Source: Candidatus Bathyarchaeota archaeon (GTDB lineage Archaea; Thermoproteota; Bathyarchaeia; 40CM-2-53-6; RBG-13-38-9). Taken from it: 64,000 nucleotides of DNA. The stretch covers positions 544,001-608,000 of the forward strand of contig CAWECG010000004.1 of assembly GCA_963807605.1 (NCBI GenBank), read 5' to 3'. Below, one piece after another: positions 50,161-52,453 of the stretch. Below the pieces are notes generated by a model that ran no database searches, was not told the origin of the DNA, and saw only the letters and a program-made list of their open reading frames with translations. The translations under genes and the position numbers were made by a program. How positions within the stretch are numbered: position 1 is the stretch's first letter; every line of letters starts with the position of its first letter.

Positions 50161-50670
50161 TTATCGGAGCCTTCTCAGAACCTCATTCTCAACCCACTGC
50201 AACCCAGCGCCTGAGAGAGAATACTTACCGTTTTCAGCAACTAGCCGACCTTCCCTCCTAAGTTCACTCGCTCTGGCCCTCACTGCTTCAGGCTTCATCG
50301 TCTTCCAGCTTGAGCTGAGGATATTGCTCAGTTCATCACACTCAACGGCTGTTGGCTTAGCCGCATAGAGAATAAGTGCCAAGGCCTCCTTTGCCTTAAG
50401 AGAGTCCACTGGGATCGTCAGTCGGGGTCTGCCTTCCGGCGTGAGTTCAACAATACCTTCCAGAGAAGGCGTAACCGTGGTGCGGGTCGCCCCAAACTCG
50501 GAGAATGTCTTTTGAACAGGTTGTTGCTCAACACTTGTCTGGGGGAGGCTTTCCAGAAGCTTCTCGAAGTATTCTTTTACGTATGCAAAATCACCTTCGA
50601 GTTCAACTTCATAGTCCCCGCGTCTTATTCTGAATCTCAGGGTCTTTTCCTCGCTCAACCTTTCTCCCAT
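50161..50670 (-). CDS. Winged-helix protein, paralog 1
   Basis: RFRIRRGDYEVELEG, LTPEG, RASELRREGRLVAENGKYSLSGAG. Confidence 0.8.
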   Translation of the reverse strand: MGERLSEEKTLRFRIRRGDYEVELEGDFAYVKEYFEKLLESLPQTSVEQQPVQKTFSEFGATRTTVTPSLEGIVELTPEGRPRLTIPVDSLKAKEALALILYAAKPTAVECDELSNILSSSWKTMKPEAVRARASELRREGRLVAENGKYSLSGAGLQWVENEVLRRLR

Positions 50671-50687
50671 CCAATGTCGTCCTCAAG

Positions 50688-52339
50688 AGGCTGTCGGAAA
50701 ATTCTTCATATTGACATCTCCATATATGGGGATGGAGCGTTACCTCCGTGCGCTCTAGCCCGCCCATCATATCGGGTGGCTTCCACCCGCCAAGGCGTAT
50801 GCTTTACAGGCATAAGCCATGATAGCCGCTGCATTCTTTCCTTTGCGGCGTAGCGGGTGTGGGCTGTAAGTCGCTCTATCAAAGGCTCCACATCTTTTGC
50901 ATCCTGCATATTCATCCTTCCATCGGTGGATATGCTAGGCTTCAGATATGGATGCCCGTGATCTTGAAGTAGAATTTTCTTAACCCAGGCTTGACGTTTA
51001 CGTATGCGTCCTGCAACTGTCTTCAGCTGGTCTGGGCTGAGATGTTCCTGTAGACCAAGTGCTCGTCTGCCAAGTATGAGTGCTGCAAGCTGATGTACAC
51101 TCATCCTTGGAAAGATTGGTTTGTATTTTGCTTCGGCGACTCGACTTGTATAGGCTGCTGGAATCCCTGCTAGGATCCACTCACGCCTCAGCGCTTTTGT
51201 GGCTGCAAGTGTGATAAGCTTCTTCCGCATGAAGTTGGCTATGAGTCTGTTCGCTCCGCCATGTTCAATACCTTTGAAATCGTTCAGGTCTTCAATGACC
51301 AGCACATTAACACCAAAGAAGCTTGCCCATTTGAGAGCCTTCTCTAGAAGGTTGCTTGCAAGCCACAGTCTCTTTTCCTTGCGGGCATAGATGAGTGCTG
51401 GTTCCTTGAAGGATTTGGCTGCAATGAGGTTTCCATCGCTGTTTACTATGACCAAGTCAATATGGGTAGGATTAACATCTATTGCAACCAATCTTGTCCC
51501 AGACCAAGGTTTGATCGGTTTGTCTGAGACCTCGAAGGATACGTAACAGTCATAATTTCCGTCAGGACGTTTCACCAGACGAATGGTGTATGGTCGAGTT
51601 GGATTCTTCGCCTTGACTGGGTGAACTGGTGGAAGGGTTTGGTCGGCGATGGCGTTGAAGATTCGCAGGTACGTTTCTGGCACGTGTAGTGGGACCATAA
51701 AGTTATCATGATTTGCTCCCCAACTTCGGATGTCAAGCATGAAGTCGCCATCAATTTTGCGGATGCGTGTGTGCAGGTTGCCCTTGTTCCATCCATCCCC
51801 AACGCTTACGAGTTGTCCTCGACGCTTCATGCGCCACCTCTCCGATCCTATGTGTTTTCGTCCGCCAAACACGACCTTCGGCAACGTACCATTCTTGAGA
51901 TGTGTTTGGATTGTGGCTTTTCGTTTCTCCAGCTTTGCGATCCGCATCTCATAGCCATGCTTCTTCAATGGGTTACAGGTTCGGTTCAGCTTCTTCTGGA
52001 CTTGGCCGATCTTCCAGTTTACTTCTTGAATGTGAAGGGCCAGCAGTTCTCGCTGACTCCCAATAATGGCTTTGGCTTGGAAGATGGCGTTATTCCGCCA
52101 GAGATAATTCTGAATACCGTAACGCTCCAAAAGGATGGGTGCGACTTCTGGCTGCTTGGTTCCAGGAATAAGTTGGTTGTAGGCTGAGCGGACCATACTC
52201 TGGAATATTCGACATGCATCGTCTAGGCTTAGATTCTGTTGTGCTTTGCAGTGAACTGTGTAGAATTGCAAATCGCAGACTCACCCATAATTCTCCAGAT
52301 GGTGTTTTAAACAAATTTGTATCAATTTTCCGACAGCCT
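50688..52339 (-). mobile_element. TIR-bounded element carrying only a TnpB-like gene
   Basis: Perfect 16-bp inverted repeats AGGCTGTCGGAAAATT (50688-50703) and AATTTTCCGACAGCCT (52324-52339); no transposase, no clear TSD. Confidence 0.75.
50706..52271 (-). CDS. Large TnpB-related RuvC protein (521 aa, no zinc finger)
   Basis: VVFGGRK, KGN, RuvC-I AIDVN, RuvC-II VIEDL, AAYTS, HQLAALILGRR in the RuvC-III position. Confidence 0.82.
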   Translation of the reverse strand: MQFYTVHCKAQQNLSLDDACRIFQSMVRSAYNQLIPGTKQPEVAPILLERYGIQNYLWRNNAIFQAKAIIGSQRELLALHIQEVNWKIGQVQKKLNRTCNPLKKHGYEMRIAKLEKRKATIQTHLKNGTLPKVVFGGRKHIGSERWRMKRRGQLVSVGDGWNKGNLHTRIRKIDGDFMLDIRSWGANHDNFMVPLHVPETYLRIFNAIADQTLPPVHPVKAKNPTRPYTIRLVKRPDGNYDCYVSFEVSDKPIKPWSGTRLVAIDVNPTHIDLVIVNSDGNLIAAKSFKEPALIYARKEKRLWLASNLLEKALKWASFFGVNVLVIEDLNDFKGIEHGGANRLIANFMRKKLITLAATKALRREWILAGIPAAYTSRVAEAKYKPIFPRMSVHQLAALILGRRALGLQEHLSPDQLKTVAGRIRKRQAWVKKILLQDHGHPYLKPSISTDGRMNMQDAKDVEPLIERLTAHTRYAAKERMQRLSWLMPVKHTPWRVEATRYDGRARAHGGNAPSPYMEMSI

Positions 52340-52453
52340 ATTTAATCTTTAATGACCGATCAAACCTCGACAAGACCGGTTGATTCTGGCGCGCGAAATA
52401 TAGGCACGGTCAGTTAATGTTCTATCCGTTTTGAACCTTCACGTACTCTTTTT

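Follow-up and report, generated by a model that had tools for sequence, protein, structure and literature searches.

A RIIIr-4-type TnpB gene between terminal inverted repeats in a bathyarchaeal genome: a putative non-autonomous transposon with an omega-RNA-like right end

We analysed a window of 64,000 nt from Candidatus Bathyarchaeota archaeon (G000:C4:544001-608000, where G000 is its genome of 2.65 Mb in five contigs, C1 to C5) and, within it, the unit at 50687-52339, in which a single gene for a TnpB-family protein lies between perfect terminal inverted repeats (TIRs). The explanation that we favour, with a probability of about 0.6, is that this unit is a non-autonomous transposon of the cut-and-paste type that carries a TnpB/omega-RNA module, is moved in trans and draws its guide from the right flank. 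A transposase encoded elsewhere would act on the TIRs and move the unit, and the module, derived from an IS607-type element, would be placed so that the right TIR forms the last conserved segment of the RNA. DNA adjoining the outer side of the right TIR would then supply the guide of the TnpB-RNA complex, which would cut alleles without the element and so favour retention or homing of the latter, a role modelled on IS605 TnpB, where it has been shown, and on the TIR-bounded Fanzor1, where it has been proposed. The TIR family itself is dispersed across the archaeal order as miniature transposable elements with inverted repeats (MITEs) and small cargo units. The protein clade, RIIIr-4, is already known; the new part is the vehicle, an archaeal, TnpB-only non-autonomous transposon of the type that has TIRs and duplicates its target site (target-site duplications, TSDs), whose ends are common to MITEs.

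Terminal inverted repeats and the mobile unit

The sequence AGGCTGTCGGAAAATT is present on the plus strand at the right end of the unit and as its reverse complement at the left end, forming perfect 16-bp inverted repeats (Table 1) that reach 19 nt with one mismatch (50685-50703 and 52324-52342). Matches to AGGCTGTCGGAAAATT with up to two mismatches are limited to these two sites in the 64-kb window, with a chance expectation of 0.02. A single open reading frame (ORF) of 521 aa occupies 1566 of the 1652 bp of the inter-repeat unit; it is single-copy in G000, and the serine recombinase gene that an IS607 element would have upstream of tnpB is absent from the unit. The coordinates and the motif search over the whole window agree with the original prediction, made from the DNA alone, that a RuvC gene nearly fills the space between these repeats.

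Comparison with relatives at other loci shows that the TIRs belong to the mobile element. DNA similarity to L098/L099 (88% amino acid identity, different neighbours) spans exactly from TIR to TIR, and both TIRs are present in L098, L100, L114, L115, L117 and L282 (51-90% amino acid identity, all at different loci), where they persist though synonymous sites are saturated (pS about 0.75). The left TIR is situated ca. 100 nt upstream of the start codon in five of these, and overlaps the called start in L115; the 5′ untranslated stretch of relatives has 50-100 nt, with a common TTAAC/TTTCACC...ATTTA-like block. The right TIR ends 15-19 nt after the stop codon and its gene strand reads always ...CCGACA(G/A)CCT, followed by C. 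The left TIR is lost in L097, and the ends of L283 and L284 are decayed or out of reach.

The limits of the unit can also be read from its surroundings. In sequencing run X3, the contigs of a relative depart from the window sequence at 50686 on one side and 52340 on the other. The orthologous site is empty in G001, a genome of the same genus: both flanks are present there, separated by 142 nt that contain neither TIR nor MITE, and direct joining of the window flanks reproduces this site. G001 also contains a 99%-identical left element end at another locus, and the flanking genes are only 70-77% identical. A look-up of sequencing runs containing the stretch returned no RNA run. Among the DNA contigs of sequencing runs, whose cover was low and patchy, we found no joint across the element.

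The same ends bound a wider family of units. They span 16-18 bp and read T/N-AGGSTGTCGGAAWATT (the end motif is also written TAGGSTGTCGGAAWATTC), with duplications mostly of 6-8 bp. In G000 there are 15 TIR matches with up to two mismatches, versus three for the control. Of 61 genomes surveyed in the order, 15 contain the degenerate motif, in comparison with two hits in total for the reversed pattern; in 14 related genomes with the motif the protein was not found. Units bounded by these TIRs range from 132 to 3477 bp; some are empty, and the cargo of the others is a small protein, the operon of an ABC transporter or a canonical TnpB in degraded form. Among them are MITEs of 132-386 bp (G014, L206 and L233) and, at L170, a unit of 1007 bp that encodes a small membrane protein. 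A 3477-bp unit in G000 (L110, C1:562703-566179) has the same TIRs and a 7-bp duplication (TGAATCC); with its pair of ABC-2 transporter genes and its regulators of the PadR and HxlR types, it is a cargo-carrying non-autonomous transposon. Another unit in G000, outside the window (L111, C4:719935-721305; 1371 bp, with a 6-bp duplication), holds the degraded gene of a canonical TnpB, which has a CxxC zinc finger, DxN as its RuvC-III motif and a frame that continues through the right TIR; therefore, a different TnpB clade also entered the same TIR vehicle. A homologue of the right end of L111 was found in G045 (L151). In seven of 15 units the flanks show exact duplications, which range over 6-11 bp (mostly 6-8 bp, with one of 11 bp), and no match in 60 displaced-flank controls exceeds 4 bp, which points to real transposon ends of the staggered-cut type. 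The duplication of IS630 is TA, whereas those of the window family have mostly 6-8 bp. A metagenome scan for the 17-mer returned 80 loci, mostly chance matches in bacterial coding DNA, of which about a dozen are true members of the family (MITEs, the 1007-bp unit and one right end of a relative).

The original prediction offered two readings, and these results favour the first, a non-autonomous TIR transposon with a captured TnpB: six relatives at other loci keep both TIRs within their mobile unit, MITEs and other cargo lie between the same ends, with duplications and with no transposase inside, and the nearest relatives without TIRs are IS607-type. The second, a TnpB element inserted into the loop of a ca. 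42-bp palindromic MITE, was right in that the TIRs occur without the ORF. The insertion itself found no counterpart: a palindromic empty site of ca. 42 bp is absent from all TIR-like sites in G000 and from the sites fetched in relatives and metagenome contigs, the MITEs that do occur have 132-386 bp, and the orthologous empty site in G001 holds no MITE.

The distribution of the family also bears on whether the RuvC-fold protein could itself be the transposase, cutting and joining the TIR ends. No other ORF lies between the TIRs, DDE and DEDD transposases are among the enzymes with a RuvC/RNase H fold, and the second TIR unit likewise holds only a TnpB remnant. However, the motif occurs in 15 of 61 related genomes and the protein in one, the MITEs and units with other cargo have TSDs without the protein, the closest TIR-less relatives are on IS607-type elements moved by a serine recombinase, and both fold and RNA match those of RNA-guided nucleases. 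We thus consider a transposase role for this protein highly improbable.

Somewhat more credit, although still little, is due to an immobilised and exapted module, with the TIRs as relics and TnpB and its RNA serving the host, or themselves, as a regulator or a toxin-like nuclease. One copy per genome, purifying selection on the protein and the failure to find a transposase would all fit, and the account of Altae-Tran et al. (2023, PNAS; PMC10691335) reports an exapted, non-mobile archaeal clade linked to MazE/RHH, with a rearranged catalytic site, and names this association among RIIIr-4 TnpBs. This is countered by the different neighbourhood of each relative, by the empty site of G001 and the 99%-identical end elsewhere in it (flanking genes only 70-77% identical), by conservation of the TIRs beyond neutral expectation and by the absence of a conserved partner gene.

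Two kinds of repeats were noted in G000 besides the units described. Repeats of ca. 120-240 nt initiated by the TIR motif occur at C1:394809, C1:566179, C3:747006, C3:765538, C3:452171 and C5:73946; they consist of the motif, about 22 variable nt and a conserved block (GGCTTAAG...TTAGGNCCTAA in relatives), with no second TIR found. They may be one-ended or decayed MITEs, and DNA folding of these repeats revealed no consistent structure. Long (CA)n/(TG)n runs are present at C1:520645-520711, C3:39707-39822, C4:19354-19416 and C1:394960, one of them abutting a TIR-bearing repeat.

Table 1. Features of the TIR-bounded unit and its right flank (window coordinates).
Feature	Position	Strand	Remarks
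Right flank, putative guide template	50667..50686	-	if the scaffold-guide boundary is the drop in conservation
Right-end TIR (3′ side of gene)	50688..50703		gene strand AATTTTCCGACAGCCT, then an always-conserved C at 50687; kept in relatives
Linker with stop codon TGA (50706-50708) and GTCAA motif (50711-50715, minus strand)	50704..50716	-	GTCAA kept in relatives
Omega-RNA-like scaffold, conserved, structured	50717..50872	-	overlaps the last ca. 50 codons; seven local helices including the terminal hairpin
Gene for 521-aa TnpB-family protein, RIIIr-4 type	50706..52271	-	D265, 51477-51479; E327, 51291-51293; H393, 51093-51095
5′ untranslated stretch, left TIR to start codon	52272..52323	-	probable promoter site
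Left-end TIR (5′ side of gene)	52324..52339		gene strand AGGCTGTCGGAAAATT

The TnpB protein and its RNA scaffold

The 521-aa protein did not match any family in a Pfam search, including PF07282, and in NCBIfam it gave only a weak, sub-threshold N-terminal match to TIGR01765. A precomputed annotation places it in PF27229 (SSO2105_N), and a literature search found no mention of SSO2105. An exhaustive protein search returned 413 clusters at E ≤0.001, with most matches ending near residue 411-420. In alignments of 19 and 44 members, D265 (IDVNP), E327 (VIEDL), N341/R342, S376 (YTS) and H393 (VHQLAA..RRALG) are invariant or nearly so, with H393, in an S-V-H-Q-L-A-A motif, conserved in at least 90% of the 44. 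The spacing from YTS376 to H393 is only 16 residues and there are no CxxC or other Cys pairs, so that a C4 zinc finger is absent.

The family profile matched PDB chains of Cas12f and of TnpB-like proteins, with E values between 1.5e-10 and about 1e-4, and with D265 and E327 aligned to the RuvC-I Asp and RuvC-II Glu of Cas12f (GiDlN with VDL and viEdL with IENL, respectively). The AlphaFold2 model has pLDDT values mostly of 75-95 over residues 1-420 and below 50 in the tail (423-521), and Foldseek comparison of this model gave a probability of 1.0 to Cas12f, Cas12k and ISDra2 TnpB, with ca. 500 alignment columns for the top Cas12f matches. The protein thus shows the split RuvC, the Asp (RuvC-I) and Glu (RuvC-II) in canonical order and the WED-REC-RuvC architecture of the TnpB/Cas12 superfamily. 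Over residues 1-420, comparison with two close relatives gives a dN/dS of about 0.17-0.18, indicating purifying selection.

A major TnpB clade, RIIIr-4, is described by Altae-Tran et al. (2023; PMC10691335) as having His for the RuvC-III Asp and as having lost the C4 zinc finger, and is argued there to be active, from conservation. Both traits are found in the protein of the window, which we assign to the RIIIr-4 type on these published definitions. The lack of a zinc finger and the H instead of D at the RuvC-III position had been correctly noticed in the original prediction; they are real, yet as published features of a known clade they do not make the protein unusual. Nuclease activity with the D-E-H residues would be expected.

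The last ca. 156 nt of the ORF appear to encode an omega-RNA-like structured scaffold, lying over the poorly structured tail of the protein. We aligned the last ca. 220 nt of eleven relatives and found that nucleotides are conserved there without third-position bias. RNAalifold predicted nine helices, seven of them local (50717-50872) and ending in a hairpin just before GATGTCAA, and the other two being weak pairings that reach into the right TIR. With 45 pairs in the nine-helix consensus, pairing holds in 93.7% of cells, and changes on both sides occur at 16 pairs, versus 8.7 +/- 1.8 in shuffles (0 of 500 as high) and 2-5 in slid controls. Additionally, synonymous sites have a pS of 0.33-0.39 in the tail versus about 0.75, that is, saturation, in the ORF body. 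It is this covariation, together with the constraint on synonymous sites, that argues for a structured RNA. OMEGA modules are characterised by a structured RNA that is conserved and overlaps tnpB at its 3′ end, as found here; no Rfam family matched the scaffold. The claim that the unit is without the guide-plus-hairpin ends of other elements needs correcting as regards the hairpin, since the covarying hairpin is followed by GATGTCAA just inside the repeat, resembling the right ends of the canonical TnpBs of this genome (...GGGAGTGTCAA).

In G000, ca. 40 TnpB genes of at least three canonical families are clustered in C4:480000-655000, which includes the whole window; the right ends of these canonical TnpBs read ...GGGAGTGTCAA, ...GGAGGATGTCAC or ...GTTCAC.

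Mobilisation of the unit and source of the guide

Several observations weigh against a transposon moved in trans with an RNA-guided module. No transposase with these ends was found in G000, in 60 relatives or at the 80 metagenome loci, in a search that was not exhaustive, nor was there one inside any TIR unit; the DDE transposase with the same TIR that the original prediction had proposed to look for did not appear. The ISC1217 group has TAG ends and 6-8-bp duplications; its transposase family, PF04693, matched in none of 61 genomes. The TIR-like motif is absent from the resident IS607, and the multi-copy insertion sequences of the genome, typed as IS5-family (three kinds) and IS6-like, have ends that differ from the TIR. 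One IS5-family kind, considered as a partner, has a TIR that is similar in its inner part, but its tip is GCGCGC and it duplicates TA; two unannotated multi-copy ORF families are not near TIRs. No TSD flanks the window copy, L098 or L115, and comparison with the empty site points to simple insertion. No genome seen has more than one copy of the element, and the protein occurs in one of 61 related genomes. With respect to the module, the TNB/zinc-finger domain found in all solved Cas12f/TnpB structures is missing from the family, no assay of an RIIIr-4 member is reported in the publications found using that name, and the 24 nt after GTCAA are conserved, as a fixed guide (see below) would be.

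The link of the ends with IS1182/IS5-type TIRs, suggested in the original prediction, is not established; the IS5-family TIRs of the genome are similar inwardly, but come with the different tip and the TA duplication described above. In G000, two kinds of IS5-family elements of ca. 1.12-1.14 kb (DDE_Tnp_1 plus DUF772) were located at C1:531279-532405, with six further copies, and at C1:343573-344712, also with six; the TIRs of both start with GCGCGC, and the first is flanked by TA on both sides. These tips may explain recurrent TTAGCGCGCGCT islands. The remaining multi-copy ORFs examined as possible transposases are ordinary genes or lack annotation, none of them near TIRs, and in relatives the ORFs that lie inward from TIR motifs belong to the host or to defence and are not transposases.

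Mobilisation by a resident Y1 (IS200/IS605) or serine (IS607) recombinase, with merely incidental inverted repeats, would agree with the presence of such genes in G000 (only four Y1 TnpA genes and one serine recombinase gene in the whole genome), with the lack of a TSD at the window copy and with an IS607-type ancestry. However, other units with the same ends have 6-11-bp duplications, the ends of the resident IS607 are without the TIR motif, and the TIRs are kept at both ends. The left junction shows no conserved nucleotide motif or target tetranucleotide, which together with the TIRs departs from IS200/IS605. We therefore hold this mode of transfer to be very unlikely.

As to the guide of the putative trans-mobilised transposon, the field sets the boundary between scaffold and guide at the last sharp drop in conservation (PMC10278001). 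Among relatives, conservation drops sharply directly after ...CCGACAGCCTC, which is the outer edge of the right TIR, and the guide would consequently come from ca. 50667-50686. The guide is thus probably templated by the DNA beyond the right TIR. This flanking 20-mer has no other match in the genome with fewer than four mismatches.

The original prediction had instead included the TIR in the guide. In such a fixed-guide arrangement the scaffold would end at GATGTCAA, and the next ca. 20 nt (TATGAAGAATTTTCCGACAG), with the TIR, would form an invariant guide against the ends of the TIR/MITE family, either to home into MITEs or to serve one mobile element as a weapon against another. In this genome, canonical TnpB elements do end in ...GTGTCAA or ...ATGTCAC right before the variable flank, the covarying hairpin immediately precedes GTCAA, the G014 MITEs carry ...CATGAAGCGAATTTTCCGACAGCCT, a near-match to the 24-mer after GTCAA, and TTGAT adjoins the left TIR in the window copy and in L098. 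Nevertheless, GTCAA does not behave as a scaffold end, since the homologous scaffold of the IS607-type sister clade extends ca. 60 nt past GATGTCAA, and TTGAT, proposed as an element end, is not conserved, being replaced by other letters next to the left TIR in L100, L114, L117 and L282. Also against a fixed guide are the absence of any other genome site for the 20-mer at fewer than four mismatches, the weak sub-TIR similarity to the 132-bp MITE (p about 0.08 and 0.2) and the failure to find a short palindromic empty site among the TIR sites surveyed. We regard an invariant guide as improbable, and about as much so as exaptation.

The flanks contain a possible signal similar to a target-adjacent motif (TAM). 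Of the four RIIIr-4 copies that are flanked by a direct repeat, three (L100, L114 and L117) have AAG immediately 5′ of the duplicated segment; the two repeats of the duplication are identical in L114 and in L117, and those of L100 differ at one of 8 bp. AAG lies within 5-14 nt of the left TIR in seven of eight copies, with a background of 0.024 per position, and the window copy has it at a distance of 7 nt from this TIR (52340-52352). Numbers are small and data from G001 and X3 suggest that AAG can also fall inside the duplication, for which reason we treat it only as a lead.

These data would also accommodate a more specific and rather doubtful proposal, although one with better prospects than exaptation or a fixed guide: an archaeal counterpart of Fanzor1, in which an IS607-derived RIIIr-4 TnpB resides in a DDE-style TIR/TSD transposon moved by an unrecognised kind of transposase, with the right TIR as the 3′ end of the scaffold, the duplicated target plus flank as the guide and AAG as the TAM. 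If true, the TAM would be matched to the insertion site and a cut-and-paste transposon would gain RNA-guided homing.

Origin of the element and comparison with known systems

The nearest relatives without TIRs (P0024, P0026 and P0027; 45-48% identity) have upstream a remnant of the C-terminal part of an IS607-type serine recombinase. Their scaffold is homologous up to GATGTCAA and then continues for ca. 60 nt to ...GTTTAGTT(G/A)C(A/G)ACTCT. Bacterial relatives, from Hydrogenibacillus, Desulfofundulus and a metagenome-assembled genome of Clostridia, are situated downstream of an IS607-type TnpA-like coding sequence, identified by reading the DNA, and their elements end in ...GTTGACCTC or similar; no exact inverted repeats were found around distant relatives. 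The IS607-type sister clade and the bacterial relatives together indicate that the TIR clade derives from IS607-type elements, and that a 24-nt segment carrying the TIR has replaced the last part of the right end. The comparison thus documents that, inside a single TnpB clade, the vehicle has changed from an element of the IS607 type to a non-autonomous unit of the TIR/TSD type.

The sister clade and the bacterial relatives of the window element are IS607-type and share with it the RNA scaffold up to GATGTCAA. Nonetheless, IS607 elements have neither TIRs nor duplications (PMC6188088), whereas the window unit is bounded by TIRs and lacks a serine recombinase. Elements with TnpB only (IS1341-type) and the IS200/IS605 family resemble it in having TnpB as the sole ORF and the RNA at the right end, but they lack TIRs and duplications (PMC3627910) and need Y1 TnpA.

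With the RIIIr-4 clade (PMC10691335), the element has in common the His for the RuvC-III Asp, the lack of a C4 zinc finger, the D and E at RuvC-I and RuvC-II, a link of distant relatives with serine recombinases and an RNA-coding region in the 3′ end of the gene. It differs in that the gene is alone between DDE-style TIRs common to MITEs; TIR-bounded members are not mentioned in the passages of that paper that were consulted. The protein is compact, with ca. 420 structured residues and D-E-H but without the TNB/zinc-finger domain, and comes with a defined RNA scaffold of ca. 156 nt; the scaffold and its boundaries would make a major TnpB clade directly testable as an RNA-guided nuclease.

Location of a TnpB within a transposon with symmetrical (inverted) ends is shared with the DDE-2 to DDE-6 and IS630-linked TnpBs, for which PMC10691335 describes a DDE transposase encoded beside TnpB; the window element encodes none. 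Fanzor1 of eukaryotes (Bao and Jurka 2013; PMC3627910) is similar in architecture, with a single TnpB-like ORF between TIRs, TSDs in the family and no transposase in cis. The ends of Fanzor1 are common to a DDE transposon family and those of the window element to MITEs, and the latter element is archaeal and belongs to another TnpB clade, RIIIr-4.

TnpB is thus known on elements of Y1 and serine recombinases, with a few branches on DDE elements that have their own transposase, and TIR-bounded, TnpB-only units are represented by the eukaryotic Fanzor1. The unit in the window is accompanied by a MITE family, documented here in an archaeal order, for which no transposase was found in the genomes and loci searched. 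By analogy, we liken the way in which it would work to that of Fanzor1 and of the DDE-linked TnpB branches, while it is a member of neither as these are defined.

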